Positions 1 through 57,471 of a DNA stretch of 64,000 nt are shown in pieces. Position numbers and translations under genes: made by a program. The stretch spans positions 284,784 to 348,783 of the forward strand of contig CAZUVH010000001.1 in NCBI GenBank assembly GCA_964623775.1, given 5' to 3'. The DNA is from an uncultured Candidatus Saccharibacteria bacterium. GTDB lineage: Bacteria; Patescibacteriota; Minisyncoccia; Phycocordibacterales; UBA2100. The notes under the pieces are model-generated. The model was given only the letters and a program-made list of their open reading frames with translations. It had not been told where the DNA came from and ran no database searches. Each line of letters starts with the position of its first letter. The stretch's first letter is position 1.

Positions 1-995
1 GCGTCGGCAACACACCCAAGCATTTCCAGGATTATGCCGCCGAGTTGAAATCAAGATTCCTCAAAAAGGGTGATTTTGTTGTCGAAGTCGGCGGGAATGA
101 CGGCGTACTTCTCGTGGAGCTTAAGGATGATATGAAAGTGCTCAACATTGAGCCGGCGAAAAACATCGCACCAATCGCGCGATCTCGCGGCGTGGATACG
201 CTCAACGAATTTTTCAATGAGGATATTGCAATAAAAGTTACGGAGAAATACGGTAAGGCAAAAGTCGTACTTGGTAACAACTCGATACCCCATATTTCCG
301 ATCAAGAGAGCGTTATGAAAGGTTTTAAGGAGTTACTTGCCCCTGATGGCGTCGGTGTCATCCAGGCCCACTATCTCGGGTATATACTCGAGGATCTTGG
401 GTATGGTGATATTTACCACGAGCACATGGCGTATTACGCGATGCTGCCGCTCGTGCCTTTTTACAAACGGCTCGGGCTTGAGATATTCGATTACGCGATG
501 AACGATTTTCACGGAGCTTCGATTCGTATCTATTTCGGACACGAGGGTAAGCACCCCGTTTCGCCAAAAGTCGCAGCACTCGTAGAAGAAGAAAAGAAGA
601 AGGGATGGGACAAGCTGGAAACGTATCAGAAGTTTGCGGAGGAAGTAGAGAAATCTAAAAATAAATTGGTCAAAACGCTCGCTGATCTCAAAAAGCAGGG
701 CAAGCATATCGCTGCGTATGGTGCGGCAGCAAAAGCGGTGCCAATTCTCAACTACGCCGGAATTACAGAAAAAGATGTCGAATTTTGCGTAGATGGCTTG
801 CCATCCAAACAAGGCCTTTGCATGCCAATGTCGCACATACCAATCATTTCGCCGGAGGAAGCATCGAAGCGCCAGGTGGATTACTATCTACTACTTGCGT
901 GGACGTTCCGTGATCACATTGCTGAGAAAGAAAAAGACTTCGTCGCGAAGGGCGGCAAATTCATCATGCCGATTGGCAACATCGAAATCTTCTAG
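1..995 (+). CDS. NDP-hexose C-methyltransferase family protein (TylCIII-like), 5'-truncated at window edge
   Basis: The frame is open from position 3 (…VGNTPKHFQDYAAELKSRFLKKGDFVVEVGGNDG…). VVEVGGNDG matches the C-methyltransferase motif I. The C-terminal Rossmann-like 'C-methyltransferase' domain is present (HIAAYGAAAKAVPILNYAGI…VDGLPSKQG…YYLLLAWTF). The N-terminus lies upstream of the window. Confidence 0.75.
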   Translation, partial: VGNTPKHFQDYAAELKSRFLKKGDFVVEVGGNDGVLLVELKDDMKVLNIEPAKNIAPIARSRGVDTLNEFFNEDIAIKVTEKYGKAKVVLGNNSIPHISDQESVMKGFKELLAPDGVGVIQAHYLGYILEDLGYGDIYHEHMAYYAMLPLVPFYKRLGLEIFDYAMNDFHGASIRIYFGHEGKHPVSPKVAALVEEEKKKGWDKLETYQKFAEEVEKSKNKLVKTLADLKKQGKHIAAYGAAAKAVPILNYAGITEKDVEFCVDGLPSKQGLCMPMSHIPIISPEEASKRQVDYYLLLAWTFRDHIAEKEKDFVAKGGKFIMPIGNIEIF

Positions 996-1040
996 TTGGA
1001 TTTCGTTTGCTCAGTTTGGTTAAACCATTATAGTTACTCA

Positions 1041-2198: not shown

Positions 2199-3349
2199 GT
2201 CCGGAACCCAGGAAAATAAAAGTCGCCTTGATGAGCTATGCGATGGATGGTCGTCAGGCAAAGGGGAGTGCACTCTCGACCCATAGGCTTGTCGAGAGAC
2301 TCGTTAAGAATCCTGAGCTTGAAGTGACACTCGTCCATTTCGACCCGAGCGACGACCCGCTCTACAAGCAGGCGAGAGAAATTATAATGCCCCAATTCAA
2401 ACTCCCGGCAGGCACCCGTTTTTTTCGTACACTCGCTTTTTTTTGGAAATATCGACACGAAGATTTCGATGTCATCCACTGGTTCCAGTCACGCGTATAT
2501 CCTTTCTTCTGGATGGCACCAGCTCGTAAAATCATCGTGACCGCGCATGCGGGCGGGGATATTACGTCCCCGGGCAAATTCCCGTTTTCTCGCAGAATGT
2601 TCAACTTCGTACTCAAACATTTCAACAATCGTGTCGATGCGCTTGTCGGGGTCTCGAATTTCGGCAGGGAGGAAATCATAGAGGCATATGGGGCAAATCC
2701 GGACAAAGTACACGCACTCATTCACTACAATGGCGGAGCGGAAGAATATAAGCCAATGGACAAAAAACAGGCGCTTGAACACATGCGAGAGAAACACAAT
2801 ATTAGTGGCCCATACATTCTCGATGTCTCGCGGCTCAGTCTTCACAAGAATGTAACGACGCTCATAAAAGCATATATATTGTTGCGAGATCAGTATCCCG
2901 ACCGAAGGGAGTTACTCGTCGTCGCGGGTGGGCCTGATAACGACGCAGAGGCAGTGTATGCACTCGCGCGTGACTCAAAATATGCGGCCGACATCCGCTT
3001 TATCGATTATGTCGCGCAGGAAGACATGAACGCACTTTATTCCGGCGCAGAAGTGTTCGCATTCCCGTCCCTGAGTGAAGGTTTTGGCATGCCGCTCATC
3101 GAGGCATTCGCCTCCGGTACGCCCATCGTGACATCCAATGTTGCTTCGCTGCCGGAAGTGGGCGGAGACGCCGTATTGCTGGTAGATCCAAAAAAATCTG
3201 AGGAACTCGCCAACGCGATACACAGGCTTTTAACAGATGACGATCTCCGAAAGTCATTGATCGAAAAAGGACTTGAGCGCTGTCGTGTATTTACATGGGA
3301 TTTGGCCGCTAAAGAAGTGAGTGATCTCTACAGGCACGTCGCCGGATGA
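2195..3349 (+). CDS. glycosyltransferase family 4 (GT-B, GT1 clan)
   Basis: The C-terminal GT4 signature is present (EGFGMPLIEAFASGTPIVTSNVASLPEVGGDAVLLVDP). The start at MSPEPRKIKV forms an ATGA overlap with the upstream stop. The 2090–2194 extension in the ORF track is not supported. Confidence 0.85.
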   Translation: MSPEPRKIKVALMSYAMDGRQAKGSALSTHRLVERLVKNPELEVTLVHFDPSDDPLYKQAREIIMPQFKLPAGTRFFRTLAFFWKYRHEDFDVIHWFQSRVYPFFWMAPARKIIVTAHAGGDITSPGKFPFSRRMFNFVLKHFNNRVDALVGVSNFGREEIIEAYGANPDKVHALIHYNGGAEEYKPMDKKQALEHMREKHNISGPYILDVSRLSLHKNVTTLIKAYILLRDQYPDRRELLVVAGGPDNDAEAVYALARDSKYAADIRFIDYVAQEDMNALYSGAEVFAFPSLSEGFGMPLIEAFASGTPIVTSNVASLPEVGGDAVLLVDPKKSEELANAIHRLLTDDDLRKSLIEKGLERCRVFTWDLAAKEVSDLYRHVAG

Positions 3350-3380: not shown

Positions 3381-3746
3381 ATGGAAATGCCGATATCGGA
3401 AATAATCGACCGGTGTAGTATTTTGCAGTTGAAGCGCGAGCGCTTGCCACTACACGATGCTTTGCAGAAAGAGTGTGAGCGTTTCGAGGCACATATTACC
3501 TCGCACCCCCTCCATCAAAGGATTAATGAACACTTGAAGACACTCAAAGAGGTGAATGGGAAAATTTGGGACCTTGAATCGGATATTCGTAAGGGAAAAG
3601 AGGGCGAATTGGGATTAGAGGAGGTCGGCCGCCGGGCACTTGCAATCCGTGATCTGAACGGTGAACGTATTCGACTAAAGAACGCGATTGCAGAAGAAAT
3701 GGGGGAATTTGGAGACGTCAAAGTCGACCACGCGAGTGATTCGTAG
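3381..3746 (+). CDS. hypothetical protein (small, predicted helical/coiled-coil)
   Basis: This 121-aa ORF sits in a tight array between the GT4 and a methyltransferase. It is charged and helical (…GKIWDLESDIRKGKEGELGLEEV…). I recognise no family. Confidence 0.45.
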   Translation: MEMPISEIIDRCSILQLKRERLPLHDALQKECERFEAHITSHPLHQRINEHLKTLKEVNGKIWDLESDIRKGKEGELGLEEVGRRALAIRDLNGERIRLKNAIAEEMGEFGDVKVDHASDS

Positions 3747-3757: not shown

Positions 3758-4708
3758 ATGACTCCCACCCCAGCCTCCTGTCCTCTGTGTAATGCGGAAG
3801 CGCCGAAAACTACTGGGCGCACGCACACCGATGGAGCGACAACGTACGCCCAATACGGCTGTGATGCCTGTCTTGTCCAATTTTGGTGGCCTCTTAAGAA
3901 TCCGGGAGCGGAATGGTATCGTACACACGAAAAATACGGCAATCGCAATGCAGATCCCGTGTGGAACGCAACGACGAACCACAAAAAAACGATGACGGTA
4001 CTTTCGAGACCCGGGGCCGTTCTTGATATCGGATGCGGTATCGGCAATTTCCTTTCTCTCGCGAAGGAGAAGGGGTGGCAGATAGCTGGTATCGACTTTG
4101 ATACGGATGCAATCGCATCTGCGAAAAAAGTGACAGAAGTCGACGATTTTGAGGCAGCAGATGTTGTTACATATGCCGCACGTCATCCAGATAGAAAATT
4201 CGACCTTGTGACATTTTTCGATGTTCTCGAACATGTCGATAATCACAATGAATTCATAGGATCGGTAAAATTACTTCTCAAGCCGGGCGGGCATATCGCC
4301 ATGAGCATGCCGTACCGCAAGCACGCACTGTGGCTCATGAGGGCAGATGTGCCGCCGATGCACCTTACGTGCTGGGATCGCGAATCACTGGAGCGCTTCC
4401 TCGATGCGCGGGGTTTTGATGTTGTGTATATGCGCCGTAGTTCCGAAGGTATATGGCCGATCATCATGAAGCTGCGCTTCAGGTACGGGAACTGGTCATC
4501 GCTCGGCGCGGTGAATGTGGCTCGCAAAGCATCAGGCAACTCGTCAGCCGGTCCACGTAATCGCCCACTGCTCGTCCGACTCGTACACATAGCCGCGAAA
4601 GCCAAAGACATTATCCTCTTTGGACTTCCTGCGCTTATTATCTGGCTTGTCATGCTGCCGAGTCCGAAGCGTTACATCGATCTTTTCGCGATTGCCAAGA
4701 TGCGTTGA
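3758..4708 (+). CDS. class I SAM-dependent methyltransferase with N-terminal Cys4 zinc ribbon and C-terminal membrane anchor
   Basis: The N-terminus has CPLCN…GCDAC. Motif I is VLDIGCGIGNF, followed by …LLKPGGHIAM. The C-terminal hydrophobic segment is LFGLPALIIWLVMLP. Confidence 0.8.
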   Translation: MTPTPASCPLCNAEAPKTTGRTHTDGATTYAQYGCDACLVQFWWPLKNPGAEWYRTHEKYGNRNADPVWNATTNHKKTMTVLSRPGAVLDIGCGIGNFLSLAKEKGWQIAGIDFDTDAIASAKKVTEVDDFEAADVVTYAARHPDRKFDLVTFFDVLEHVDNHNEFIGSVKLLLKPGGHIAMSMPYRKHALWLMRADVPPMHLTCWDRESLERFLDARGFDVVYMRRSSEGIWPIIMKLRFRYGNWSSLGAVNVARKASGNSSAGPRNRPLLVRLVHIAAKAKDIILFGLPALIIWLVMLPSPKRYIDLFAIAKMR

Positions 4709-4739: not shown

Positions 4740-5990
4740 ATGCGGTACACCGGAAAAATTCGGTTTGTCGATAGGTACATCGGCTCTATTGTGCTTTTTT
4801 TGTTTACGATCCTGCATTTTTTCCGTCGCGTCCCGAAAGATAGGAAGGTGCAAAATGTTCTCATAATCGAGCTGGTTGAGATGGCGGCAGCAGTCATGGG
4901 ATACGCTTCGGTATTACACATCAAGAAGCAGATACCCGATGCGCGTATATTCGTACTGTGCACTGAAAGTACAAAGGAGGCGTGGATGCTGCTCGACGGA
5001 ATCGATAAAGATGATGTCGTGACACTCGACAATAAAAGCACCCTGACACTTCTCGCATCTATCTGGCGAGCGACACATGCACTATCCAAAAAGAACATCG
5101 ATCTGATACTCGATTTCGAGCTCTTTACACGAATCTCGGCGATTCTCTCGCTGCTCATCAGGACGAAGCTGCGCGCGGGATTCTACGGCTATACGACAGG
5201 TGGGCTCTATCGCGGTAATTTCCTCGATGTGAAATGCAATTTCAACCAGAACATGCATATCAGTAAAAATCTGCTCGCACTCACAAAATCCGCGCTCGAT
5301 CCAAATCCGCAACACTACAATTGGGATGGTCCGATTTTAAATAGTGAAATTGTTGTTCCAGAATATGTATCCGATCCGGTGATGCGCGCAGAAGTAAAGA
5401 AGAAGGTCTATGAGGCAATAGGCGGCAATTCTGAGCACCTCATCGTACTCGCTCCTACTGTCGGTCAGATGCTCCCCATGCGCGATTATCCGAAGGAGAT
5501 GTATGTCGAAGTGATCAAGAAATTACTCGTCGTATATCCGATGCATCACATACTTCTCGTCGGTACCCCGTCCCATAGCGGAGTCGGTAGATTCATAGAA
5601 AAGGCGGTCAGTGCGAAGAAGTGTGTAAATTTCTGTGGCAAGACAGCTACTCTGCGTGAACTCCTAGAGCTCTTTTCCATGGCTGAGCTCCTCATCACCA
5701 ATGACAGTGGTAATCCGCATTTTGCGGCGATGGTCGGACTCAAAAACGTAGCGCTCTTCGGACCGGAGACACCTTTTATGTACGGACCTTTGGGCAAATC
5801 GGTCTGCCTTTTCGATTTTTTCCACTCGAGCCCGAGCATTACCTCATACAATCACAAGAATCCTCCGAGTGATTCCAATGCCTCATTGCGAAGCATCTCG
5901 CCTGAGCGCGTTGTGAAGACGGTGCAACTCCTGATGGAGGGTAATGCGAGATACGGGACGGTCAATAACGAGGTACCATATCTGCTTTAG
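4740..5990 (+). CDS. glycosyltransferase family 9 (ADP-heptose:acceptor heptosyltransferase-like)
   Basis: The GT9 C-terminal motif is present (LLITNDSGNPHFAAMVGLKNVALFGPETP). The N-terminus is VLIIELVEM…GYASVL. The exact start is uncertain (4740 or a downstream ATG). Confidence 0.8.
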   Translation: MRYTGKIRFVDRYIGSIVLFLFTILHFFRRVPKDRKVQNVLIIELVEMAAAVMGYASVLHIKKQIPDARIFVLCTESTKEAWMLLDGIDKDDVVTLDNKSTLTLLASIWRATHALSKKNIDLILDFELFTRISAILSLLIRTKLRAGFYGYTTGGLYRGNFLDVKCNFNQNMHISKNLLALTKSALDPNPQHYNWDGPILNSEIVVPEYVSDPVMRAEVKKKVYEAIGGNSEHLIVLAPTVGQMLPMRDYPKEMYVEVIKKLLVVYPMHHILLVGTPSHSGVGRFIEKAVSAKKCVNFCGKTATLRELLELFSMAELLITNDSGNPHFAAMVGLKNVALFGPETPFMYGPLGKSVCLFDFFHSSPSITSYNHKNPPSDSNASLRSISPERVVKTVQLLMEGNARYGTVNNEVPYLL

Positions 5991-5993
5991 GCA

Positions 5994-6451
5994 GGAATTT
6001 TCAATTTACAATTCTCAATTTCCAATCAATTTACAATGAAGGAAATTTCAAACAAAAAGACTTATGATCTTGAAGAGCGAACGGCCGTTTTTGGCGAGTC
6101 AGTCATTTTGCTTTGCAGGGAAGTAAAGCAGGACGCAATTACTAAGCCGCTAGTAAATCAGCTCGTTCGCTCCGCCACAAGTATTGGTGCAAATTACATG
6201 GAAGCGAACGGCGCTAGTTCGAAGAAAGATTTTGCCAACAAGATCTTTATCTGCAAAAAGGAGACTCAAGAGACGAAACATTGGCTACGAATGCTTGCAA
6301 CAAGTGTTCCAGTGTTGCGCGACGAGATTCGAAAGCTCTGGCAGGAATGTCAAGAATTAACCCTCATATTTCAGAAAATCGCATCTTCAAGCCGGTTGAA
6401 AAATTGAACATTTGACCTTCAATGAAAATTGAAAATTAAGAATTGAAAATT
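5994..6451 (+). mobile_element. putative insertion cassette carrying a four-helix-bundle (23S-IVS-type) gene, bounded by AT-rich 'caatt/gaaaatt' repeat termini
   Basis: The left terminus is aattttcaatttacaattctcaatttccaatcaatttacaATG. The right terminus is caatgaaaattgaaaattaagaattgaaaatt. Both termini recur at 8456–8600 with the gene interior missing. Confidence 0.45.
6036..6407 (+). CDS. four helix bundle protein (TIGR02436-like, '23S rRNA intervening sequence protein' family)
   Basis: The family hallmark is present (…VRSATSIGANYMEANGASSKKDFANKIFICKKETQETKHWLRM…). It is a 123-aa protein, as is typical. Confidence 0.85.
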   Translation: MKEISNKKTYDLEERTAVFGESVILLCREVKQDAITKPLVNQLVRSATSIGANYMEANGASSKKDFANKIFICKKETQETKHWLRMLATSVPVLRDEIRKLWQECQELTLIFQKIASSSRLKN

Positions 6452-6478
6452 CCTCATGTTTTGAGGTACTATTAAAAC

Positions 6479-7372
6479 ATGAGGATTTTAGTCACGGGCG
6501 GTACAGGATTTATTGGCTCAAATATCGTCGAGGCGCTTATTGCGCGCGGCGATGAGGTATTGATCACGGGACACGACGCAGAGCAGCAACCAAAGGGATT
6601 TACCGGAAAATTCTTGCAACCGTCGCTCATCGGTATAGATTGGGATTCGATAGGATCCCTTGACGCCGTCATCCATGAGGCTGCGATCAACGAGACGCAA
6701 TCGAAGGACGAAAAGGAAATGATGCGTGCCAACGTGGATTCCTCACTCGCACTTTTTGAATATACTGTAAAAAATGGCTGCAAGCGAATTGTGTACGCAT
6801 CGTCGACAGCCGTATATGGTGACGGGCCGACACCATACAAGGAAGACCAAGAACTGCAGCCACTTACACCCTATGCCAAATCGAAGGCCAAACTTGACGC
6901 TGAAGTGAAGAAATTTGCCACAAATAATCCGTCCATAACAATCGTCGGTCTGCGGTATTGCAACGTCTATGGACCGGGCGAGTCACATAAAGGTAATCGC
7001 GCGAGCATGATCTACCAGCTGGCGCAGCAGATGAAAAAAGGAAATCCGCGACTTTTCAAATCTGGTGAACAAAAACGCGACTTTATTTATGTAAAGGATG
7101 TTGTCGTTGCAAACCTCCTGGCGCTCGAATCAAAAGAAAATGCCCTTGTAAATTGCGGCTCGGGCACTGCGTCATCGTTTAATGAGATTGTCGCGATTCT
7201 GAATACGGAAATGAATTTGAGTCGCGTTCCCGAATACTTTGACAATCCTATCGCTGCTACCTACCAAAACCACACCGAGTGTGACATGTCGCTTGCGGAA
7301 CAAAAGCTCGGCTTTATTCCCGCTTTCGATATTAAAAAGGGAATCAAGGATTACGTGGCCTCCGGTCTCTAG
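6479..7372 (+). CDS. hldD: ADP-L-glycero-D-manno-heptose 6-epimerase
   Basis: The N-terminus is MRILVTGGTGFIGSNIV. There is a strong match to E. coli HldD/RfaD across VGLRYCNVYGPGESHKGNRASMIYQLAQQMKKGNPRLFKSGEQKRDFIYVKDV. The gene is 297 aa. Confidence 0.85.
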   Translation: MRILVTGGTGFIGSNIVEALIARGDEVLITGHDAEQQPKGFTGKFLQPSLIGIDWDSIGSLDAVIHEAAINETQSKDEKEMMRANVDSSLALFEYTVKNGCKRIVYASSTAVYGDGPTPYKEDQELQPLTPYAKSKAKLDAEVKKFATNNPSITIVGLRYCNVYGPGESHKGNRASMIYQLAQQMKKGNPRLFKSGEQKRDFIYVKDVVVANLLALESKENALVNCGSGTASSFNEIVAILNTEMNLSRVPEYFDNPIAATYQNHTECDMSLAEQKLGFIPAFDIKKGIKDYVASGL

Positions 7373-8600: not shown

Positions 8601-8606
8601 GAACCT

Positions 8607-48732: not shown

Positions 48733-50486
48733 TCCGAATCTTGCGAGACCGCATACTTCTCATCACTGTTTTTGTAACGGTGCTGCTTTCGCTTGTGCCC
48801 CTCGTCCAATATCCTTCGTCGGGGAGCAGTTTTGAAGGATTTGTGTATGGGCGCTACATGGACTATTACTACACATCAGTGGCGCGAGAAGTGTATGACG
48901 GGTATCCGCTTCTAGGGAACCCGTTTTTTTATGAGCATAGGGAGTCAATAGCGCCTGCAATGATCCTCCCTTTTCAGATATATGCACTGCCATTGTTTGC
49001 GGGCTTCTCGCTTGCCGCGACCTCCATTTTCAATTTCAGTCTCTGGAGCGTGATTTTCGTGGCCGCCCTCTATCTTATCTTGAGACGACTCACCATTCCT
49101 TCAATATGGGCCGCTGTTGGGAGCGTGTTTGTGTATCTCATCATGTATGGACAGCTTATCCGGGTGGTCTCCATGGAAATGGTGCACCCCGTGTTTCTGC
49201 TTTTCATACTACTTTTCTTTTATTGGTGGGATAAGCCCGGAAAGTATCGCGACACAATCCTCTCACTCGTCATCGCATTCAGTATTTATATATACCCCTA
49301 CTTGCTGCACGTAATTTTCTGGTTCCTAATTATCGTCTTCGGCCAGCTGCTCTATGTGCGTGACAGTGAACGGACCAGGCGTGCGCTCATGGTTGGATTA
49401 ATTACTACGGCGCTCTGCATACCATTCCTGGTGATCACCTGGATCCAGGTGAATAATCCGTATTACGTCGAGTCACTGCTCCGTATCGGCTTAGGGTACA
49501 CACATATACCCTCAGGAGAGGTTGTGCGCGGTGCTATGCGTATATTCCCGATGATCGCGCTTGCGCTCTTGAGCTGGGTGTGGATCTTTCGCAAGAAAAA
49601 TCTCTCAAGTGCCCCGCACCTTTTTCATCTCCTTATTCTTGGAATCGCGATATGGATATCATCCACTGAGAATGTGATCACGGGTCTCGATCTGGAGACG
49701 GCGTCGCATGTCGAGAGGTTCGTCATGCTCTGGTTTTCGATCATGTCGGTCGTTGCTTTGTATTTTCTGTATAGTGCGCGACGCGACATCGCATTCATGA
49801 GTAGTGGTAAAAAGATCACACTCGGACTTCTTGCGGCACTCGTTTTTCTACTTGCGATACCGTATGTAAAAAAAATTGATCCGGCCATACGAGACGCTGA
49901 TGCGAATCGCCTGAAAGCCCAGAAGGCCACGGCAGTGCTACCTGCCTTGCGGTGGCTTGATGCCAGCGCGAAAGGCGCTGTAGTCTGGACGAACCCAGAG
50001 ACCGACCTCAATGCTCATGTGTCGGTGCTCACGACGCAATATACTCTTTTCGGCACCGGTCATTTACATCTCATGCCCACGAGGGACGTTGAAGATCGGT
50101 ATCTCATCGCGCACTCGGCGGGGGAAGTTACACTCGAAAGTATTACAGCTGACGTGTGGGATCACAGTGGTGTAGGTGCCGCGATTGATACACCAAATAC
50201 ACTCAATCGCAGTGTAAAGTTGTGCCGACTTCTCCGACTTCACTATTTTGGTCGCGAGTGTGGCAATCTCACGAATGCGCGGATACTCTATGCAGAGAAT
50301 TATGCGGCCATGTATAACAGGTTTACGAATGAGATTCGGCCACATCTTGCAGAGCAACTTAAAAAATACCACGTCGACTATGTCATTCGAGATACACAAA
50401 CCGACAACGACTTTCATCCCGAGCGTATGGTAAAAATGGAGCTTGTGTATTCAGACGACCGTTTTGAAATCTACAAGACAATATAG
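48729..50486 (+). CDS. polytopic membrane protein with C-terminal soluble domain (candidate GT-C-fold glycosyltransferase)
   Basis: The 585-aa protein has ~10–12 TM segments. Its first extracytoplasmic loop carries the acidic/aromatic motif AREVYDGYPLLGNPFFYEH. The C-terminal ~200 aa are hydrophilic. It is a paralog of the next gene. Confidence 0.4.
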   Translation: MIRILRDRILLITVFVTVLLSLVPLVQYPSSGSSFEGFVYGRYMDYYYTSVAREVYDGYPLLGNPFFYEHRESIAPAMILPFQIYALPLFAGFSLAATSIFNFSLWSVIFVAALYLILRRLTIPSIWAAVGSVFVYLIMYGQLIRVVSMEMVHPVFLLFILLFFYWWDKPGKYRDTILSLVIAFSIYIYPYLLHVIFWFLIIVFGQLLYVRDSERTRRALMVGLITTALCIPFLVITWIQVNNPYYVESLLRIGLGYTHIPSGEVVRGAMRIFPMIALALLSWVWIFRKKNLSSAPHLFHLLILGIAIWISSTENVITGLDLETASHVERFVMLWFSIMSVVALYFLYSARRDIAFMSSGKKITLGLLAALVFLLAIPYVKKIDPAIRDADANRLKAQKATAVLPALRWLDASAKGAVVWTNPETDLNAHVSVLTTQYTLFGTGHLHLMPTRDVEDRYLIAHSAGEVTLESITADVWDHSGVGAAIDTPNTLNRSVKLCRLLRLHYFGRECGNLTNARILYAENYAAMYNRFTNEIRPHLAEQLKKYHVDYVIRDTQTDNDFHPERMVKMELVYSDDRFEIYKTI

Positions 50487-50490
50487 GCCT

Positions 50491-52251
50491 ATGAAGGAAT
50501 TTCTAAAAACGCACAGGATCGCGATGCTCCTCACGCTATTTGTCGGAACTGTCATAGGATTACCCTCGATTCTCGCTCCGCTTGCGATCGGAAGTGCCTA
50601 TCTAGGCATCCCGTTTCTCCCCCTCAGTGATGAATATTTTTACATGTCTCGCATTCGCGAAGTGCTCGACGGTCACCTGTGGACAAATGCGCCGTACGTC
50701 TACGAGTACAAAAGCCTTCTCTCGCCTACATTTCCGGTCAATGAGTGGCTCTATGCAATCCCCGCACTCGTGTTTGGCCTGATCCCCGTCGTAGTAGCGA
50801 GCAAGTTTGTTCTGCCCGCGCTTTTATTTGTATTTTCGTATTTTCTTTTCCTCAGCGTATTCAGACGGGACGATGAGACTACCAGGTGGAGCGCGATTGC
50901 CGGCTCTCTCGTTATTGTATTGGGAACAGAATTTGTTAATTACAGTTATGTTTTCGGCATCTTGGATGGAACGAAGTATCCGATTGAAAATGGATGGACA
51001 CGACTGGTTAACCCGGTAATGGGCGGCGTGCAATTGCTTGCCTTTTTGTTTCTCATTGCAGAAGTGTGGAACCGAGGATGGCGCTATGCGCATATTGCAG
51101 CGGGCATAGTGCTTGCGGGCATGGTCGGGTATTTCTTCAGTTTTGGTCTGGCCCTGTCCATGCTTGCGACACTTTTCCTTTTTGCGCTTGCGAGAAAAGA
51201 ATACAATGTCGCTCGTGCCCTTTTCACGACGGGGGCACTCTCCATTTTTCTCGACGCGTGGTGGTGGTACAAGATGCTCTTTTCGCTCGGTGGGGAAGAG
51301 GGGGCGGCACTGGCCATGCGCAACGGCATGTTTTTCACGCATGAGCCCGTTCTCAACAAAGCACTACTTGCATCCACTGTCGTTGTCGGCGCACTCTTTT
51401 GCTATGTGTACTTTTTCTTGCGCAGGCGCGAGTACATTCGAGAGTATCTCTTTGCTTTCGCCCTCGTCGTGGCTGGCTGGATTGCGTTTAATGAGCAGGT
51501 AATAACGGGGCGACAGGTCTGGCACCATCACTTTATGCAATACACAGTGCCAATGGGGGTTGCGGCAATAATAATAGCGGGATACTACACATTCAGGCAT
51601 CTGAGGTATCTATGGATCTTCGGTACCGGAAGTCTTGCGACCGTTTGCATCGCCTACGGTCTTTATGCCGTCACTGCATACACAGCACCATGGGATATAG
51701 ATCGTCATATCCATGTTCAACGTGCAGCACTTTATACGACATGGTTCCAGCAGAATGCACCCAAAGATTGTGTGGTCCTCGCGAACCCAAACGATATCGA
51801 TGTGTTCGATGAGGAGCGTCTCATCCCCACGTTCTCGCATTGCAATACGTATACCGTTGATTTCGTCCCATTCGGAATTACGCGAGAACGTATCGAGCAC
51901 AATTATTTATTACAACTGCGTATGCGTGGGGTAAGCGCAGCGGGCGTCCGTGAACATCTTTTGGGGCAAGGTGTATGGATTCGTCAGTATTTTTCTTCAG
52001 ATTGGCACCAGGTCTTTGGCTATGAGCGTGGCATGGAGCCGTGGATTCTTGATCGTATTGATCGACTTACGGAGGCATATCAGCATTTCATGAAAGTACC
52101 GCTCGAAACTCAGATCAAGAAATATCGTGTCGACTACATCCTTTCGGAAGGACCACTTCCGAGAAAATTGCTTGCCGAACTACCAGATCTCAAGCTCGTT
52201 GCTTCTCCCGGCATGTACCGCATCTATCAATTTACAGAGTCCGGAGAGTAG
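50491..52251 (+). CDS. polytopic membrane protein, paralog of 48729–50486 (candidate GT-C-fold glycosyltransferase)
   Basis: It shares the loop motif IREVLDGHLWTNAPYVYEY and a related C-terminal tail (KYRVDYILSEG…YRIYQF vs KYHVDYVIRDT…FEIYKT). The start is at MKEFLK. Confidence 0.4.
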   Translation: MKEFLKTHRIAMLLTLFVGTVIGLPSILAPLAIGSAYLGIPFLPLSDEYFYMSRIREVLDGHLWTNAPYVYEYKSLLSPTFPVNEWLYAIPALVFGLIPVVVASKFVLPALLFVFSYFLFLSVFRRDDETTRWSAIAGSLVIVLGTEFVNYSYVFGILDGTKYPIENGWTRLVNPVMGGVQLLAFLFLIAEVWNRGWRYAHIAAGIVLAGMVGYFFSFGLALSMLATLFLFALARKEYNVARALFTTGALSIFLDAWWWYKMLFSLGGEEGAALAMRNGMFFTHEPVLNKALLASTVVVGALFCYVYFFLRRREYIREYLFAFALVVAGWIAFNEQVITGRQVWHHHFMQYTVPMGVAAIIIAGYYTFRHLRYLWIFGTGSLATVCIAYGLYAVTAYTAPWDIDRHIHVQRAALYTTWFQQNAPKDCVVLANPNDIDVFDEERLIPTFSHCNTYTVDFVPFGITRERIEHNYLLQLRMRGVSAAGVREHLLGQGVWIRQYFSSDWHQVFGYERGMEPWILDRIDRLTEAYQHFMKVPLETQIKKYRVDYILSEGPLPRKLLAELPDLKLVASPGMYRIYQFTESGE

Positions 52252-52289: not shown

Positions 52290-54500
52290 ATGCTCGAAAA
52301 AATTCTGCGTGGGATAGTCATTACCGGAGTTTTCAGTTTGCCGTTCGTTTGCCTCATTGTCGCGTCATCGATGTTCTTCCCTTTCATTACGGGTAAGAAT
52401 TTCGCGTTCCGCATCATTGTAGACATTATCGTCGGCGCGTGGCTTGCCCTTGCACTTGTCAACGAAAAATATCGTCCCCGTCGATCCTGGATCCTGGGGA
52501 CATTCGCTCTATTTGTACTCATAATGGCGATAGCAAATGCGCAGGGCGTCTATCCCTTCAAGAGCTTCTGGAGCAACTACGAACGCATGGACGGGTGGGT
52601 CACGATTGCCCACACACTGGCATACCTCGTCGTGGCCGCATCAGTGATCGCAAGTGAGAGAATGTGGCGATCCCTGTTTCAGGTCAATCTCGGCGTATCA
52701 GTGTTCTTGAGTGCGTATGGGTTAATGCAGTTGGCGGGGCTCTCTGCACTGGGTCAGGGGGGGAAAGCTGGACTTGCTACAGCTCGTATCGATGCGACTT
52801 TTGGAAACCCGATCTATTTGGCGGTGTACATGCTTTTCAATATCGCGTTCGCCGCACTCCTGTGGGTCCAGATGTCACAGGTACGGCCGGCAGGTAAGCG
52901 CTTGATGCCGTCGCTCTTTTACGGCGGAGTCATTTTATTCGATACATTGGCACTCCTTCTCACTGCGACACGCGGTGCGATGTTCGGGCTCATTGGAGGA
53001 GCGCTGCTCGCCTTGCTGCTCGTGGCCTTTTTCCAAGGGACTCGACGAATACGGACTATCGCAGTCGCATCTCTTGTGGCCGTCGTTGTCTTTGGCGTTG
53101 CCATCAAGCTCGGTAAAGATACGCCACTCGTAAAGAGCATAGGATTCATTGATCGTCTCGCGCAGACAAATCTGGGGGGTACCGTAGAGACCCGATTTCT
53201 CAATGCGGGTATGGCGTGGCAGGGAGTGAAAGAGCGTCCACTCCTTGGTTGGGGGCAGGAAAATTACGCCATTGTTTTCGATAAATATTTCGATCCTCGC
53301 ATGTACCGTGCGGAACCGTGGTTTGACCGAACGCACAACGTCATATTTGACTGGTTCGTTACGGGCGGCATCCTCGGACTTCTCTCGTATCTCTCAATTC
53401 TCGCAGCTGCACTGTGGCTGATTTGGATGCGGGGGATACTTTCGATTCCTGAACGAGCGATATTCACCGGGCTTCTCGCGGGCTATACATTTCAAAACCT
53501 CACGGTTTTTGACAATGTGACCAGTTATATACTTTTTGCGACTGTGCTCGCATACATTGTCTGGCGCGAGCGCGAGGCGGGGAAAAATGCGCCGCTCTTC
53601 ACGAAAAAGCTTCTGCCCGAAAATAGTCTGCCGTTTGTCGCTGTAATCGCAGGTATCGTCACGTTTGCTGCCGTATGGTGGATCAATATTCCCGCGTTGC
53701 AGGCCAATTGGACGCTTCTCAAGGCAGTAGCGCCGCAGCAGGCCGGTGTCACAAAGAATCTCGAATACTTCAAGCAGGCGATCGCATACGGCACGATGGG
53801 CACACAGGAGGCTCGTGAGCAGATCGCGCAGATCTCCGTGCAGGTGCAGGGCTCGAAGCTCGACAATTCGATCAAGCAGGAGTTCTTCAACCTGGCAACT
53901 TCCGAGATGAAAAAGCAAAGCGCAGAGTCGCCGCTTGATGCGCGATTCCCACTCTTCCTCGGGTCTGTCCTCGACGCGTATGGTCAGCATGACGCAGCTG
54001 CAGCCGCTTTCCAGCGGGCACATGAGCTCTCGCCGGCCAAACAAAGCATTCTGTACCTCATGGCGCAAAACGCGATGACGCGTGGTGACAGTGCAGCCGC
54101 ACTGCAACATTTGAAGACAGCGTATGAGGTCCTTCCGGCAAACATAGAAGCACGACTCAACTATGCCGCGATGGCGATCCAGCTGAAGCAGGACGCGCTC
54201 GCCGATGAGTTGCTTGCGCCAGTCATGGCGACAGGGGAGGCGGCCAACAATAAAGTCGCATCCGCGTATCTCGCACGTGGCCGCTACGACAAGATTGCGC
54301 AGATCTGGGAATCGCACATCGTGGCAGTACCGACCGATCTGCAAGGATACTTCACGCTCGCCGCCGCCTATTACGCACTCGGCAACAAGGAAAAATCGAT
54401 CGAAGCTTTACAAAAGGCAAAGGCCGCTATCCCAGCTTCGGCACAACAGGTTGATTCACTCATCATTGAGATTCAAAACGGCACGGTGAAGTTGCAGTAG
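52290..54500 (+). CDS. O-antigen ligase family (Wzy_C) membrane protein fused to C-terminal TPR repeats
   Basis: The N-terminal ~430 aa are multi-TM with Wzy_C-like loop regions (…TFGNPIYLAVYMLFNIAF…LLLTATRGAMFGL…). The C-terminal ~280 aa are helical repeats (…AAAAFQRAHELSPAKQSILYLMAQNAMTRGDSAAALQHLKTAYEVLPANIEARLNYAAM…). Confidence 0.7.
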   Translation: MLEKILRGIVITGVFSLPFVCLIVASSMFFPFITGKNFAFRIIVDIIVGAWLALALVNEKYRPRRSWILGTFALFVLIMAIANAQGVYPFKSFWSNYERMDGWVTIAHTLAYLVVAASVIASERMWRSLFQVNLGVSVFLSAYGLMQLAGLSALGQGGKAGLATARIDATFGNPIYLAVYMLFNIAFAALLWVQMSQVRPAGKRLMPSLFYGGVILFDTLALLLTATRGAMFGLIGGALLALLLVAFFQGTRRIRTIAVASLVAVVVFGVAIKLGKDTPLVKSIGFIDRLAQTNLGGTVETRFLNAGMAWQGVKERPLLGWGQENYAIVFDKYFDPRMYRAEPWFDRTHNVIFDWFVTGGILGLLSYLSILAAALWLIWMRGILSIPERAIFTGLLAGYTFQNLTVFDNVTSYILFATVLAYIVWREREAGKNAPLFTKKLLPENSLPFVAVIAGIVTFAAVWWINIPALQANWTLLKAVAPQQAGVTKNLEYFKQAIAYGTMGTQEAREQIAQISVQVQGSKLDNSIKQEFFNLATSEMKKQSAESPLDARFPLFLGSVLDAYGQHDAAAAAFQRAHELSPAKQSILYLMAQNAMTRGDSAAALQHLKTAYEVLPANIEARLNYAAMAIQLKQDALADELLAPVMATGEAANNKVASAYLARGRYDKIAQIWESHIVAVPTDLQGYFTLAAAYYALGNKEKSIEALQKAKAAIPASAQQVDSLIIEIQNGTVKLQ

Positions 54501-54639
54501 AGAATTTTTTCCCCGGACAATCTCGTCATTTGCACTTCTCTCGGTGCAGTTGAAATGATATTTTAAGAGATCAAAAAGAGATAAAGAAAAGATAAAGTGA
54601 TTGTTTGCACAGCGGCGGGCACGTATGTATAGTGCCGCC

Positions 54640-57471
54640 ATGAATTTGCGCAGGGTCGCGTTGATGGTACTTATATTGGCAGCCACTTCCTCTGCGACGC
54701 CCGCTTTCGCCTCCACTCTCCCCGACACCTGTGGCGCCTACGATAGTGGCCAATCGGGAGGCATCTTCGACCCGGCGGGGGATAGCACTGAATATTCTTC
54801 GGATGGGTATCTCATCTACCGTCTCCATCTCAAAAACCCCTCTGCCCCGGGCGATACTTTCAATCTTAGATTCCAATATTTTCTGGACACATGCAGAGAT
54901 GTCACGCTCTTTGCAAGCGGACCGCTCGTCACTTTGCCAGCAGGCGTCAGCGACGTCAGTATTCGCTTCACGTCGAGAACAGAGTACGGTATCTGGGACG
55001 ACACACACGAGACGCTTCTTAATCAGGTCTCGATCGAATCGTACCCCGCGTATATCAGCATCAGACCCACCCTCATCGCTTCGCCGACCTCGTTCTACAT
55101 CGGCCACACGCACAAAATCTATCGTGATGGCGTGCCCCCGATTGTCGAGAGTGCCGTGGAGAAGCCTGCCGCTTGTCCGCCACTCCAGGTACAGACGGAT
55201 GGCCTGTGGTTTGACCATGGATACGAACGTGCCGAATACGTGGACGGCCTCTTGCGCGTCCACTTGCGCTTCCTCGACAGAGTAGTCCCTGCCGACAATT
55301 TCCCACGTTTCAACTTCCGGCAAGGCGTTGTACCGGTGACGAACGAAGATTGCACATTCAGTGCGCCACTCAATTCTTTGCCTTCAATCATCGCTCCGTA
55401 TCACAGCTGGTACTATTCGTACCGTTTTATCGATGCGACGCACTGGGTAATGTGGGACGATGAGAGAAACGTGCCGTTCTCAGACGTGTCGGGACTCTGC
55501 AATAGCTGCTCCGGCACCATTCCCGAAGGTACGAAGTACGTCTACTGGCTCGGCGACCGCAACGGCCGCTTCATGCGCACCACCCCATTCCCGCCGGTGG
55601 AACCGACGACGAGAATTGACCCCGTCATCATGATTCCCGGTATTTTGGGGTCAGATTATAACGAGAACGGGGAATTAGTTATGGACCCGATCTTGCACAA
55701 ATACGATGATCTGATCGCGACGTTGGATGCCAATGTTTACACTCAAGGCACGGACCTCTTCACGTTCCCATACAATTGGCGCTTATCGAATATGCATACG
55801 GCACTGCTGCTTAAGGCGAAGATCGATGAGGTTAAGGCGATTTGCCAGTGCGATAAAGTCGATCTCGTCGCGCACTCGATGGGCGGTCTCGTTGCACGAC
55901 AGTACATTCAATCGAGTAGCTATGAAAACGATGTTGATCAGCTAATCTTCCTCGGAACGCCTCACCGTGGTGCGCCCAACTCTTATTTAATGTGGGAAGG
56001 TGGTGAGGTCGAAGCTGGCTTAAGGGATAGGGCGATGGAGCACATTTTGGGACAAGAGGCGCATGAACAAGGTTATGACGATCTGTTTGATTATGTGCGA
56101 AATGAGCCGATTACCTCAGTTCGCGAACTTTTACCTGTCTATGATTACGTTTTCGATAACGGAGACTTGCGTGACTACCCGGAAAATTATCCGACCAACC
56201 CATTTCTCGAAAACCTCAACGCCAACGTAAACGAGCTTCTTGGTTCAGGAGTTTCGATCAGCAATATTGTCGGAGAAAATGGGAGTAACGAGACAATAAT
56301 CGGCATTAATGCAACAAACGGTATGCAGTATTTGCCAATGTGGGAGCATGGCTACCCGGAGAATTTTTATCTTAATTTTGGAGATCATGGATTAGTGCGC
56401 GGTCAAGGTGACGGAACCGTTCCATTCGCAAGTGCCACGTTCGTTGCAGAAAATGTTTCAACGACCACATTCGAGCACACCGCAATACCTGAAGAGGCTC
56501 AGGCAGAGATTTACGAAATCCTTACGGGTGAATCGGCTACGACACTCGTCGACAACTGGAACCTAGTAAACGCCAAACTACTCTTCTTTAAAATGTTTTC
56601 TCCAGCGGATTTTTATGTCATGGCGCCGGATGGCAAGAAGGTCGGAAAAAATGTGCCCGAATCAGAAAAGATCCCTGGTTCATTCTATAGCGGATTCACC
56701 TCTGGCCCGGAATATGTCACGATTCTCAACCCGCTCGATGGAGAGTACAAAATCGTGACGGAAGGCACAGGCAGCGGATCATATACAGTCGAAGCAGCAC
56801 TCCTGAGTGATGAGGAGGTCGTCGAATCTTCGTTTACGGGCAACACCACCTCTGGTTTACTCACGGAGCTCAATGTCGTTCTTGATAGTAATAATCCGAA
56901 CGAGATCGAGGTCACGCCGACCGACACAGAGTCGCCGATCATAAACATCGTATCTCCTGAGGAACGAGACTACGAGCGCTCGCTGCAGCTGGCAGTTAAC
57001 ATATCAGCACAAGACTCGTCAGGCGTATTTGCGCTCGAAACCATACTTGGCACTACGACGATTCCGAACATCGGAGTCGTTGATCTCTTTTTTCTCAAAC
57101 TCGGGACGCACACACTGGCCGTATCTTCCTCCGATAACGTCGGCAATGCGACGACATCAAATCGCACATTCAAAATCATCGCAACGGCGAGCAGTACGCT
57201 TTCGGACATTGATCGTACGTATGCTCTCGGATGGATGACGGAAAAAATTCACAAAACTGTCAGTAAGAAGTTCAAAGCCATAACCAAAATTTCAAAAAAA
57301 GTCGAGAGACGAACTGACGGAAGACCGAATGGAGAGAAGCTACAGATGGTGGTTGATAAGATCCTTGCGCACGCTATGCTTAATGAGCTGCAGAGATACC
57401 GAAGCAGGGGACTCAGTGAGCAGGCTTACCAATTATTAAGAGAGGATATTCTGTGGCTCATTAATAACTAA
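54640..57471 (+). CDS. large secreted alpha/beta-hydrolase (lipase class 2 / LCAT/PGAP1-like esterase domain) with extended N- and C-terminal regions
   Basis: It has a signal peptide (MNLRRVALMVLILAATSSATPAFA). The central lipase-like core is PVIMIPGILGSDYN…FTFPYNWRLS…VDLVAHSMGGLVARQYI…IFLGTPHRGAP (nucleophile elbow GHSMGG type). The start at 54640 is preferred over 54601. Confidence 0.65.
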   Translation: MNLRRVALMVLILAATSSATPAFASTLPDTCGAYDSGQSGGIFDPAGDSTEYSSDGYLIYRLHLKNPSAPGDTFNLRFQYFLDTCRDVTLFASGPLVTLPAGVSDVSIRFTSRTEYGIWDDTHETLLNQVSIESYPAYISIRPTLIASPTSFYIGHTHKIYRDGVPPIVESAVEKPAACPPLQVQTDGLWFDHGYERAEYVDGLLRVHLRFLDRVVPADNFPRFNFRQGVVPVTNEDCTFSAPLNSLPSIIAPYHSWYYSYRFIDATHWVMWDDERNVPFSDVSGLCNSCSGTIPEGTKYVYWLGDRNGRFMRTTPFPPVEPTTRIDPVIMIPGILGSDYNENGELVMDPILHKYDDLIATLDANVYTQGTDLFTFPYNWRLSNMHTALLLKAKIDEVKAICQCDKVDLVAHSMGGLVARQYIQSSSYENDVDQLIFLGTPHRGAPNSYLMWEGGEVEAGLRDRAMEHILGQEAHEQGYDDLFDYVRNEPITSVRELLPVYDYVFDNGDLRDYPENYPTNPFLENLNANVNELLGSGVSISNIVGENGSNETIIGINATNGMQYLPMWEHGYPENFYLNFGDHGLVRGQGDGTVPFASATFVAENVSTTTFEHTAIPEEAQAEIYEILTGESATTLVDNWNLVNAKLLFFKMFSPADFYVMAPDGKKVGKNVPESEKIPGSFYSGFTSGPEYVTILNPLDGEYKIVTEGTGSGSYTVEAALLSDEEVVESSFTGNTTSGLLTELNVVLDSNNPNEIEVTPTDTESPIINIVSPEERDYERSLQLAVNISAQDSSGVFALETILGTTTIPNIGVVDLFFLKLGTHTLAVSSSDNVGNATTSNRTFKIIATASSTLSDIDRTYALGWMTEKIHKTVSKKFKAITKISKKVERRTDGRPNGEKLQMVVDKILAHAMLNELQRYRSRGLSEQAYQLLREDILWLINN

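Follow-up and report, generated by a model that had tools for sequence, protein, structure and literature searches.

A probable modular surface-glycan locus at a fixed site beside secA in a Kaiserbacteria-like bacterium of the candidate phyla radiation

We have analyzed a stretch of 64,000 nucleotides from an uncultured bacterium (assembly GCA_964623775.1, contig CAZUVH010000001.1, positions 284,784 to 348,783), referred to here as the window, most of which is taken up by a long block of genes for sugar metabolism and glycan assembly. We propose, with a probability of about 0.7, that this block is a native, modular and variable surface-glycan locus of a Kaiserbacteria-like member of the candidate phyla radiation (CPR), and that it occupies a fixed site upstream of a gene encoding a Wzy_C membrane domain with tetratricopeptide repeats (TPR), next to secA and gatB.

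Results

Gene content was read from Pfam and NCBIfam scans of 59 open reading frames (ORFs). A preliminary description of the sequence had taken positions 1-57471 as one glycan island in which essentially every gene is sugar-related. As to content this mostly stands, since about 38 of the 57 genes in that interval match sugar-nucleotide, glycosyltransferase (GT) or export families and 13 are generic modifying enzymes; at the level of families, most gene calls match sugar metabolism. Six genes lie outside glycan work, namely an intervening-sequence protein, a GIY-YIG ORF, three citryl-CoA synthetase/citryl-CoA lyase (CCS/CCL) genes and a lipase-like protein. The proposed borders did not hold. 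On the right the sugar genes end at 54500, and on the left the block extends at least 9 kb beyond the window on a contig of the same metagenome (L165; window coordinate = L165 coordinate minus 8960), so the known length of the block is at least 63 kb. The leftmost gene of the window is cut by the edge, with its frame open from base 3. L165 has this gene, for a C-methyltransferase, in full, and to the left of it genes for GtrA, a PMT_2 GT-C enzyme, a methyltransferase, a secreted fibronectin-III (fn3) protein, a GT2, an AsnB-like amidotransferase and an epimerase.

The right-hand border is marked by the gene at 52290-54500 (plus strand, as are all features below unless stated otherwise), which joins a Wzy_C membrane domain of the O-antigen-ligase family (PF04932, 65.6 bits against a cut-off of 31.7; scores are quoted below in this form) to a C-terminal TPR region, and which we call the anchor. 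In 67 of 80 relatives, the gene immediately upstream of secA encodes a homolog with 33-57% identity. The anchor is the last sugar gene, whereas the preliminary description had ended the block at 57.4 kb with a 956-aa hydrolase that is absent from the relatives. In about 25 close relatives the gene order is variable sugar genes, a minus-strand GDP-mannose 4,6-dehydratase gene (GMD), a plus-strand nucleotidyltransferase-cupin gene, the plus-strand anchor and secA. The nucleotidyltransferase-cupin gene of the window (41380-42183) fuses a cytidylyl/adenylyltransferase-like domain with a HIGH motif (CTP_transf_like) to a mannose-6-phosphate-isomerase-type cupin (MannoseP_isomer); its product is 62-77% identical in the roughly 25 relatives, where the gene is almost always directly upstream of the anchor and often divergent from gmd. 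Compared with close relatives that hold this gene, the window has about 10 kb extra (42215-52251) between it and the anchor.

Relatives share hardly any gene content upstream of the anchor. For 34 relatives with a SecA identity of 70% or more, 101 protein families were counted in the 5 kb upstream of the anchor. Of these families 77 are singletons, and the mean pairwise Jaccard index is 0.028, against 0.355 for the 5 kb downstream of secA. Nine upstream singletons drawn at random comprised an FkbM and a Methyltransf_11 methyltransferase, a GT2, an ATP-sulfurylase/adenosine-phosphosulfate (APS) kinase, an inositol-monophosphatase-family protein, a NYN-domain protein and three proteins without a family match. 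Genes resembling those for NeuB, PseC, cytidylyltransferases, C-methyltransferases, GmhA and ABC transporters recur in the upstream regions of the relatives. The ATP-sulfurylase/APS kinase gene (L012, 4501-6150) and the inositol-monophosphatase-family gene (L033, 5648-6460), which on our own reading might presumably encode a CysQ-type phosphatase of phosphoadenosine phosphate, hint at sulfated glycans in the relatives carrying them.

SecA of the window shares 61-76% identity with its counterparts in 80 metagenome-assembled genomes (MAGs) labelled Kaiserbacteria, Paceibacterota, Parcubacteria or Patescibacteria, and the order secA-gatB-HTH_17 is common to the window and these relatives, so a Kaiserbacteria-like CPR host is indicated. 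The tetranucleotide signature is the same throughout: comparison of any 8-kb segment with the remainder of the window gives r 0.89-0.95, and comparison with the loci of the closest relatives gives r 0.87-0.94 (distant ones below 0.5). GC content is flat at 0.44-0.53. Overlapping contigs of the same run together cover about 49 of the 64 kb, and identical genes occur on contigs of two other runs. This uniform composition, together with the overlapping and independent contigs, leads us to regard the block as native to the CPR bacterium. It leaves very little room for recent acquisition of the island from a foreign source, for the auxiliary genes of a prophage or for a chimera assembled onto a CPR backbone, all of which we consider extremely unlikely, the more so as orthologs of the middle genes are found in other CPR genomes and the window contains no phage, integrase or tRNA genes (a tRNA scan of the window found none, and an Rfam scan was likewise empty). 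What speaks for such an origin is that the relatives lack counterparts of most middle genes within 10 kb of secA, that a GIY-YIG ORF lies within the block, and that nucleotide-sugar genes, gmd among them, are known from phages of Patescibacteria (PMC12911398). CPR genomes themselves are rich in GTs (PMC5220378), and a paper on horizontal gene transfer (PMC12455944) contains nothing on glycan islands.

In 57 full-length homologs of the anchor (25-58% identical), residues R228, R289, R302, D346, R347 and H349 are at least 95% conserved, and they lie in or beside the loop 274-352. A hand-made topology gives 13 hydrophobic segments, a positive N-terminus and a positive stretch (REREAGK...KK) after segment 12. 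WaaL of E. coli presumably has an essential Arg-Arg-His at a spacing similar to that of these residues. A PDB sequence search with the anchor protein matched only TPR proteins. With WaaL, Neisseria PglL, Pseudomonas TfpO/PilO and Geobacillus WsaB the anchor shares the Wzy_C domain and conserved His and Arg residues in a predicted outer loop; it differs from them in its C-terminal TPR region of about 240 aa and in its conservation by secA across a CPR clade, and we assign it to none of their subclasses.

A second line of evidence comes from the pseudaminic acid (Pse) genes, which lie between 9578 and 38134. PseC aminotransferase (29215-30378; TIGR03588, 432.0 against 423.5), PseI pseudaminic acid synthase (34141-35181; TIGR03586, 455.8 against 340.25, with the NeuB model under its cut-off) and a Pse-biosynthesis-associated methylase (31820-32473; TIGR03587, 182.5 against 112) pass their models. 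They are accompanied by a PseB-like inverting UDP-GlcNAc 4,6-dehydratase (20448-21437; TIGR03589, 398.8 against 407.75), two CTP_transf_3 cytidylyltransferases (22986-23837, minus strand, PF02348, 129.8 bits; and 23841-24584, PF02348, 114 bits, PseF model 34 against 205.7) and two GNAT N-acyltransferases (14297-14848, Acetyltransf_3, 97.8 bits, PseH model 47.6 against 93.1; and, in the PseH position, 33648-34112, Acetyltransf_3, 59 bits, PseH model 35.8 against 93.1). A DUF218 protein (22375-22956; PF02698, 60 bits) and an MsbA/PglK/HepA-like ABC exporter with fused transmembrane and nucleotide-binding domains (9578-11380; ABC_membrane and ABC_tran) belong to the same set.

Two KpsC-like GT-B proteins complete this module. 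The first (14845-16272) matches Capsule_synth (PF05159, 30.7 against 20) and KpsC chains (E 0.009). The second (36599-38134, 511 aa) is a paralog of the first (E 1e-11), but as a single sequence it gave no family match in our scans and nothing useful in the PDB, whereas the profile of its family matches KpsC chains only among PDB entries (E 9e-5). It has at least 256 homologs with 41-60% identity, many of them recorded with Capsule_synth, and all organism-named homologs are from CPR groups. Resemblance to KpsC/KpsS is thus found in both sequence and fold. The proteins differ from the KpsC/KpsS and WbbB beta-Kdo transferases (GT107, GT99; Kdo, 3-deoxy-D-manno-octulosonic acid) in their size of about 500 aa, their extra helical segments and an identity to KpsC of only 13-14%. 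As they are constantly linked to NeuB and cytidylyltransferase genes, a CMP-ulosonate would be the donor, and as these clusters are of the nonulosonate and not the Kdo kind, that donor would presumably be CMP-Pse and not CMP-Kdo. The 511-aa protein is the best candidate for a CMP-pseudaminate transferase, and its paralog is a candidate CMP-nonulosonate transferase.

Related cassettes were examined in three other contigs, from Buchananbacteria (L167), a Joint Genome Institute metagenome (L168, whose protein is labelled Minisyncoccia by NCBI) and Uhrbacteria (L169), the last two within 8 kb. The three have in common an HTH_17 gene and genes for a 600-aa ABC exporter, a DegT aminotransferase and a KpsC-like protein. 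Only L167 has the full set, in the order HTH_17, ABC exporter, PseB-like, DegT, cytidylyltransferase, DUF218 (placed as in the window), NeuB, GNAT and KpsC-like. L168 also has a Polysacc_synt_2 gene cut at the locus edge, a cytidylyltransferase and a GNAT, with no NeuB or DUF218 gene within 8 kb, and L169 also has a PseB-like gene, with no cytidylyltransferase, DUF218, NeuB or GNAT gene within 8 kb. The window orthologs are 41-62% identical to the genes of these cassettes (41-48% for the ABC exporter, 51-53% for the PseB-like protein). As the Pse core recurs in this way in three other CPR-labelled or CPR-like contigs, we regard the version in the window as an expanded CPR nonulosonate cassette, to which two acetamidino-forming sets, the Pse methylase, extra methyltransferases, and a trio of aldolase, aminotransferase and ATP-grasp genes have been added.

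Each acetamidino-forming set consists of a WbuX-type N-acetyl sugar amidotransferase, a HisH-type glutaminase and a HisF/WbuZ-type subunit, so that all three subunits of the WbuX/WbuY/WbuZ system are found, with a marginal match for WbuZ. In set 1 these are HisH (11405-12049; TIGR01855, 235 against 105), WbuX (12046-13224; TIGR03573, 333 against 203) and the WbuZ/HisF-type cyclase subunit (13531-14300; TIGR03572, 290.5 against 299.7). An apparent 296-bp gap between the WbuX and HisF-like genes (13224-13521) is filled by an inserted 89-aa ORF of the GIY-YIG nuclease family (13255-13524; PF01541, 61.7 bits), one of the non-glycan genes. In set 2 they are HisH (30419-31027; GATase, 89.9 bits), HisF/WbuZ (31021-31770; His_biosynth, 215 bits) and WbuX (32475-33632; TIGR03573, 387.5 against 203). 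The trio comprises an enzyme of the L-amino-acid-ligase type (25770-26984; LAL_C2 and ATP-grasp_4), a class I/II aspartate-type aminotransferase (26971-28164; Aminotran_1_2, 254 bits; a 397-aa gene call) and a protein of the 4-hydroxy-2-oxovalerate aldolase family (28205-29209; TIGR03217, 306.7 against 286). It could make and attach a hydroxy-amino-acyl group. Of the two amino-acid or acyl-CoA modules in the preliminary description, this one was borne out; the other is taken up below.

The combination of pse genes, an acetamidino-forming amidotransferase and a Pse-associated methylase is typical of the islands that glycosylate flagellin or pilin in Campylobacter, Helicobacter and Aeromonas. 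With the Pse locus of C. jejuni and H. pylori (PseB, C, H, G, I and F, plus PseA) the window shares PseC and PseI, which pass, and PseB, which nearly does, as well as GNATs, cytidylyltransferases, the Pse-associated methylase and a PseA/WbuX-type amidotransferase. It differs in lacking PseG, a Maf transferase and flagellin, in its doubled amidotransferase set and in its extra aldolase, aminotransferase and ATP-grasp genes. Pfam scans of the window and flanks found no Maf/DUF115 transferase, flagellin or flagellar gene, and the conserved partners of the Pse genes are instead a KpsC-like enzyme and an ABC exporter. We therefore think it quite unlikely that the block is a flagellin- or pilin-specific island, though a pilin may yet be the acceptor.

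Genes for an ADP-heptose route lie at 4740-9578. HldC, the D-beta-D-heptose 1-phosphate adenylyltransferase (7369-7779, minus strand; rfaE_dom_II, 186.7 against 181.5), passes its model, and beside it are an HldD-like ADP-heptose 6-epimerase (6479-7372; TIGR02197, 244.6 against 274.6), a GmhA-like sedoheptulose-7-phosphate isomerase (7918-8475; PRK13936, 223 against 276, matching from residue 146), an HldA-like heptose-7-phosphate kinase (8607-9578; rfaE_dom_I, 309 against 345) and a GT9 glycosyltransferase of the heptosyltransferase family (4740-5990; Glyco_transf_9, 65.8 against 22; heptosyltransferase II model, 74 against 134.6). In the long plus-strand ORF at 7477-8475, resemblance to GmhA begins only at about residue 148; the N-terminal extension is without relatives and overlaps hldC, and the first 147 or so codons look spurious. 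The preliminary description had missed hldC, and public metagenome gene calls on identical sequence also overlook it and call a 322-aa 'GmhA' instead. The fusion at 41380-42183 had been considered as the HldC of the pathway and was rejected as primary candidate once the true minus-strand HldC was located, which leaves the route without GmhB only.

ADP-heptose genes, a GT9, an MsbA-like ABC transporter and an O-antigen-ligase-family domain are classic parts of a lipopolysaccharide (LPS) cluster, and one could read the block as the LPS core or O-antigen cluster of a diderm, with the GT9 and ADP-heptose serving the inner core and the Wzy_C protein acting as WaaL. We consider this very unlikely. 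Synteny with 67-80 CPR MAGs covers both the secA-gatB-HTH_17 flank and the anchor. The window is of one composition throughout and has no lpx, kds, Wzx or Wzm/Wzt genes, and CPR genomes are reported to lack lpxC and kdsA (PMC5220378). The view that this is not a routine O-antigen locus fits these results, because the host belongs to CPR, a group reported to lack LPS genes.

A GDP-mannose branch is encoded on the minus strand at 38162-41338 by GMD (38162-39199; TIGR01472, 426 against 415), which is kept near the anchor in relatives, a GT4 glycosyltransferase (39354-40541; Glycos_transf_1, 108.6 bits) and an FkbM-family methyltransferase (40526-41338; TIGR01444, 98 against 37.7). The 10 kb extra before the anchor begin with a glucose-1-phosphate cytidylyltransferase (42215-43084; TIGR02623, 313 against 300) and an NDP-hexose 4,6-dehydratase-like short-chain dehydrogenase/reductase (43048-44043; CDP_4_6_dhtase, 182 against 278; dTDP model, 188 against 365). 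These are followed by a short GT2 resembling polyprenyl-phosphate-sugar synthases (44047-44742; Glycos_transf_2, 88.5 bits; best NCBIfam matches PgfS, ArnC, AglJ and PpgS, each far under cut-off), a full-length TylCIII-type C-methyltransferase (44761-46035; Methyltransf_13, 23 and 14), a GFO/IDH/MocA oxidoreductase (46043-46966; PF01408, 91.8 bits) and two methyltransferases that depend on S-adenosylmethionine (SAM) (47006-47863, Methyltransf_11, 55 bits; and 47881-48732, Methyltransf_23, 104 bits, 59% identical in L027). The sugar of this CDP branch would be a C-methylated, O-methylated 6-deoxyhexose. The family scans thus bear out the four nucleotide-sugar routes earlier described, which we read as ADP-heptose, CDP-hexose, GDP-mannose via gmd and CMP-pseudaminic acid.

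Nine methyltransferases are counted, in keeping with the earlier figure of at least nine. Besides the five already named (31820, 40526 on the minus strand, 44761, 47006 and 47881) they are the C-terminal three-quarters of a TylCIII-type NDP-hexose C-methyltransferase (1-995; Methyltransf_14, 179 bits; in full in L165, 409 aa, Methyltransf_13, 23 and 14), SAM methyltransferases at 3758-4708 (Methyltransf_23, 95.7 bits) and 35974-36591 (205 aa; Methyltransf_25/11), and a 384-aa methyltransferase-like protein at 24595-25749 (Methyltransf_23, 29.3 against 27). The claim that three of them are TylCIII-like C-methyltransferases did not survive, as only 1-995 and 44761-46035 carry Methyltransf_14; the 384-aa protein is only weakly similar to the C-methyltransferase core (E 4e-4), and a single-sequence PDB search with it gave nothing useful.

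Between this branch and the anchor stand two proteins with 12 transmembrane segments (48729-50486, 585 aa; and 50491-52251, 586 aa), which are distant paralogs (23% identity over full length, E 1e-14). Both have the GT-C membrane fold with acidic residues in the first outer loop, and neither has a Pfam, NCBIfam or PDB sequence match (PMT_2, ArnT, YfhO and others). Only seven homologs were found among 5.8 billion proteins, and the second protein is 40-45% identical to homologs in L027 and L044. We suggest that they form a previously unrecognised GT-C family of putative glycosyltransferases. Upstream of the pair lies the set of GT2, CDP-hexose enzyme, 4,6-dehydratase, C-methyltransferase, oxidoreductase and two methyltransferases. 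The arrangement is like that of the systems ArnC/ArnT, GtrA/GtrB/GtrC and CsbB/GtcA/YfhO, which glycosylate outside the cytoplasm with three components, in that the polyprenyl-phosphate-synthase-like GT2 is four genes upstream of the two GT-C proteins, and in that GtrA, a GT2 and the PMT_2 GT-C protein are interspersed within 6 kb just left of the window. It differs in that the GT-C family of the window lacks a Pfam model and in that the donor would be an unusual C-methylated 6-deoxyhexose.

The preliminary description had predicted a single, heavily decorated glycan from one co-transcribed block. About 52 of the 57 genes are on the plus strand and most intergenic gaps are below 60 bp, but minus-strand genes at three places (7369-7779, 22986-23837 and 38162-41338) rule out a single operon. 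Tight packing mostly on one strand, a single ABC exporter, a single Wzy_C gene and uniform composition would all agree with one co-regulated island in which the four sugar routes feed a single repeat unit or oligosaccharide. We nevertheless find this doubtful. The WbuXYZ set, the cytidylyltransferase, the GNAT, the KpsC-like protein and the GT-C protein are each present twice in the block, with PMT_2 and GtrA to the left; the Pse core stands alone elsewhere as a cassette with its own exporter; relatives hold differing subsets of the modules; and minus-strand genes interrupt the block three times. The duplicated functions and the stand-alone Pse cassette lead us to regard the locus as modular, possibly with more than one product, and several products or decorations are at least as likely as one glycan. 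Amidination and heavy methylation are upheld by the gene content, which stops short of a single glycan.

Several observations weigh against our proposal of a native, modular surface-glycan locus. The window and the adjoining 9 kb on its left showed no initiating phosphoglycosyltransferase of the WecA/WbaP type, no Wzx flippase and no Wzz. PseG, which is also missing from the CPR cassettes, and GmhB were not found either, and the window has no HAD-family protein. PseB, GmhA, HldA, HldD and WbuZ narrowly miss the equivalog cut-offs; for the GmhA-, HldA- and HldD-like proteins the matches are best by far, yet under the cut-offs. Scans of the window for consensus promoters and terminators gave counts at the level of shuffled sequence, that is, of chance, and so are uninformative on operons. 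The loci of the relatives are seen within 10 kb of secA only, and the Kaiserbacteria-like assignment is drawn from the right-hand 12 kb (SecA, GatB and synteny) and from composition. As for the anchor, its loop 274-352 and TPR domain would lie outside the membrane according to the hand-made topology and the positive-inside rule, and its sequence is compatible with a ligase, a protein O-oligosaccharyltransferase or a polymerase.

The remaining sugar-related and modifying genes are a DegT-family sugar aminotransferase (1041-2198; DegT_DnrJ_EryC1, 456 bits, under the ArnB and PseC cut-offs), whose 385-aa product occurs exactly on Logan contigs, a GT4 glycosyltransferase (2231-3349; Glycos_transf_1, 117 bits) that is also called as a gene in L164/L165, a 121-aa protein with a weak match to DUF6165 (3381-3746; PF19662, 21.9 against 27), a class-III aminotransferase (19075-20394; Aminotran_3, 135 bits), an aldo/keto reductase (21452-22396; PF00248, 128 bits) and an Amidohydro_2 protein (35190-35969; PF04909, 109 bits). 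Among the non-glycan genes, that for the 23S rRNA intervening-sequence protein (6036-6407; PF05635, 57 bits) has homologs that adjoin secA on its downstream side in two relatives, L019 and L047.

The other proposed acyl-CoA module consists of a citryl-CoA synthetase or ATP-citrate lyase (ACL) beta-like subunit (16293-17438; ATP-grasp_2 and Citrate_bind, the latter 75.8 against 26.8), a citryl-CoA synthetase alpha-like subunit (17435-18328; CoA_binding and Ligase_CoA, with a GHAGA phosphohistidine motif at residue 255) and a citryl-CoA lyase-like protein (18331-19014; Citrate_synt, 123 bits; CCL models, 148 against 212). All three genes of this trio (16293-19014) occur in 52 of 80 metagenome loci scanned (L084-L163), of groundwater type, with up to 68% identity. 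Most of these loci lie among housekeeping genes, which we read as YebC, XerC/D, FtsH, tryptophanyl-tRNA synthetase and RuvC. A few lie among glycan genes, where the order and strand are the same throughout in the loci listed, and in L152 the trio is directly upstream of the anchor and secA. The reading as a glycan-specific acyl module was rejected because the neighbours across the 52 loci are mostly housekeeping genes. CCS/CCL genes (bioRxiv 10.1101/2022.10.25.513756) and aclAB have already been reported in CPR, and on both grounds we treat the trio as a general citrate-cleavage cassette. With Hydrogenobacter CCS/CCL and ACL it shares the three-part architecture, the ACL citrate-binding domain in the beta subunit, the GHAGA histidine in the alpha subunit and a short third component with the citrate-synthase fold; it differs in missing all NCBIfam cut-offs and in being embedded in a glycan locus. 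This lineage is not known to have a tricarboxylic acid cycle. The N-acetyltransferases may draw on the trio for acetyl-CoA.

The 956-aa protein at 54601-57471 is a secreted, LCAT/PGAP1-like alpha/beta hydrolase of lipase type (LCAT, 51.7 bits) with a signal-peptide-like N-terminus, a GHSMGG motif and Ig-like C-terminal regions. Its gene is an insertion between the anchor and secA, with no homolog at that position in the relatives, where the sole trace is a weak partial match in L049; it does not serve as the end of the block. It is probably outside the glycan machinery, and it could be an episymbiont enzyme that attacks the host envelope.

Between the glycan locus and secA lies an RNA-like hairpin (58170-58245, core 58178-58235). 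Identity of its 59-nt core reaches 95-100% in most of the roughly 55 relatives that carry it, and for their SecA it is only 61-76%. Covariation is seen in the outer helix, and there are invariant G-U pairs that speak for the plus strand. The orientation of the hairpin relative to secA varies (13 same, 36 opposite); it is not a tRNA and matches no Rfam family even at E ≤ 1. Just upstream of secA, positions 58415-58594 are 70-74% conserved in relatives with constant orientation. They contain a 15-codon, Lys-rich ORF, MAKKKKAKAKKKKRL (about 58513-58560), and a terminator-like hairpin at 58567-58594 with a 12-bp stem and a T-run, the one strong hairpin of the terminator scan.

Discussion

Taken as a modular locus, the block can be given a working order. 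The nonulosonate module (ABC exporter, PseB, PseC, DUF218, cytidylyltransferase, PseI, GNAT and KpsC-like GT-B) would make CMP-pseudaminic acid, the two WbuX/HisH/HisF sets would turn N-acetyl into acetamidino groups, and the Pse-associated methylase and the aldolase, aminotransferase and ATP-grasp trio would add further substituents. A second module would comprise the ADP-heptose pathway (GmhA, HldA, HldC and HldD) with the GT9, a third a GDP-6-deoxymannose branch with GMD, GT4 and the FkbM O-methyltransferase, and a fourth two branched-sugar branches with TylCIII-type C-methyltransferases, one of them based on CDP-hexose and leading on to the GT2 and two GT-C enzymes. The activated sugars would be made by soluble enzymes. 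On the inner side of the membrane, the GT4, GT9 and KpsC-like enzymes would assemble a glycan on a lipid, and the ABC exporter would flip it. Outside the membrane, the Wzy_C-TPR protein would hand the glycan to an acceptor, either a surface protein or a wall polymer, and the GT-C enzymes would add single sugars from polyprenyl-phosphate donors. Assembly on a lipid carrier with transfer outside the membrane, as first suggested, is plausible, since an ABC exporter, a Wzy_C protein, a polyprenyl-phosphate-synthase-like GT2 and GT-C proteins are all present.

LPS is unlikely as the acceptor because CPR genomes are reported to lack lipid A genes. A candidate glycoprotein acceptor is the secreted 583-aa protein with fn3 repeats and 28% Ser+Thr on L165 (2860-4611, minus strand; 4.3-6.1 kb left of the window start), which sits inside the glycan block with the PMT_2 GT-C, GtrA and GT2 genes beside it. 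The locus may resemble the S-layer glycan (slg) clusters of Gram-positive bacteria that use a Wzy_C O-oligosaccharyltransferase. In those clusters too, we presume, the Wzy_C gene is associated with an exporter and methyltransferases.

Closest in layout are the O-antigen and capsule serotype loci, such as that between galF and gnd in E. coli. Like these, the locus has hypervariable content between conserved flanks and is made up of nucleotide-sugar, glycosyltransferase and processing genes, including WbuX/HisH/HisF amidotransferases (WbuX/Y/Z being from E. coli O145). It differs in that the host lineage is reported to lack LPS, that Wzx/Wzy/Wzz and Wzm/Wzt are missing, that the anchor is a Wzy_C-TPR gene by secA and that the block is at least 63 kb long. 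What sets it apart from known loci is thus its host, its anchor, the KpsC-like partner of the nonulosonate genes, the GT-C family and its size. Our literature search found no paper linking nonulosonic acids, O-antigen-ligase genes or this anchored locus to CPR.

A wider reading, to which we give even odds, is that CPR bacteria of the class Paceibacteria have a fixed-site, hypervariable glycan locus, marked by the Wzy_C-TPR anchor by secA, as the functional counterpart of O-antigen and capsule loci in ultra-small, LPS-less episymbionts. Here it would span at least 63 kb and make a doubly amidinated, methylated Pse glycan by means of a CPR-specific cassette, with its ABC exporter and KpsC-like transferase, and a new GT-C family, and glycan diversity would be one of the main ways in which strains differ.

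Much of bacterial diversity belongs to CPR bacteria, which live attached to other cells and whose envelope is little known. Their genomes are typically about 1 Mb. If our reading is right, such a genome devotes at least 63 kb, or several per cent, to one glycan locus, whose content turns over almost wholly between close relatives while the transferase stays fixed. The Wzy_C-TPR gene would serve as a locus marker for typing MAGs, and the nonulosonic-acid cassette, the KpsC-like putative pseudaminyl transferase and the new GT-C family would be targets for study. Surface sugars would then be a key determinant of host recognition and attachment and of resistance to, or escape from, phages in these organisms.

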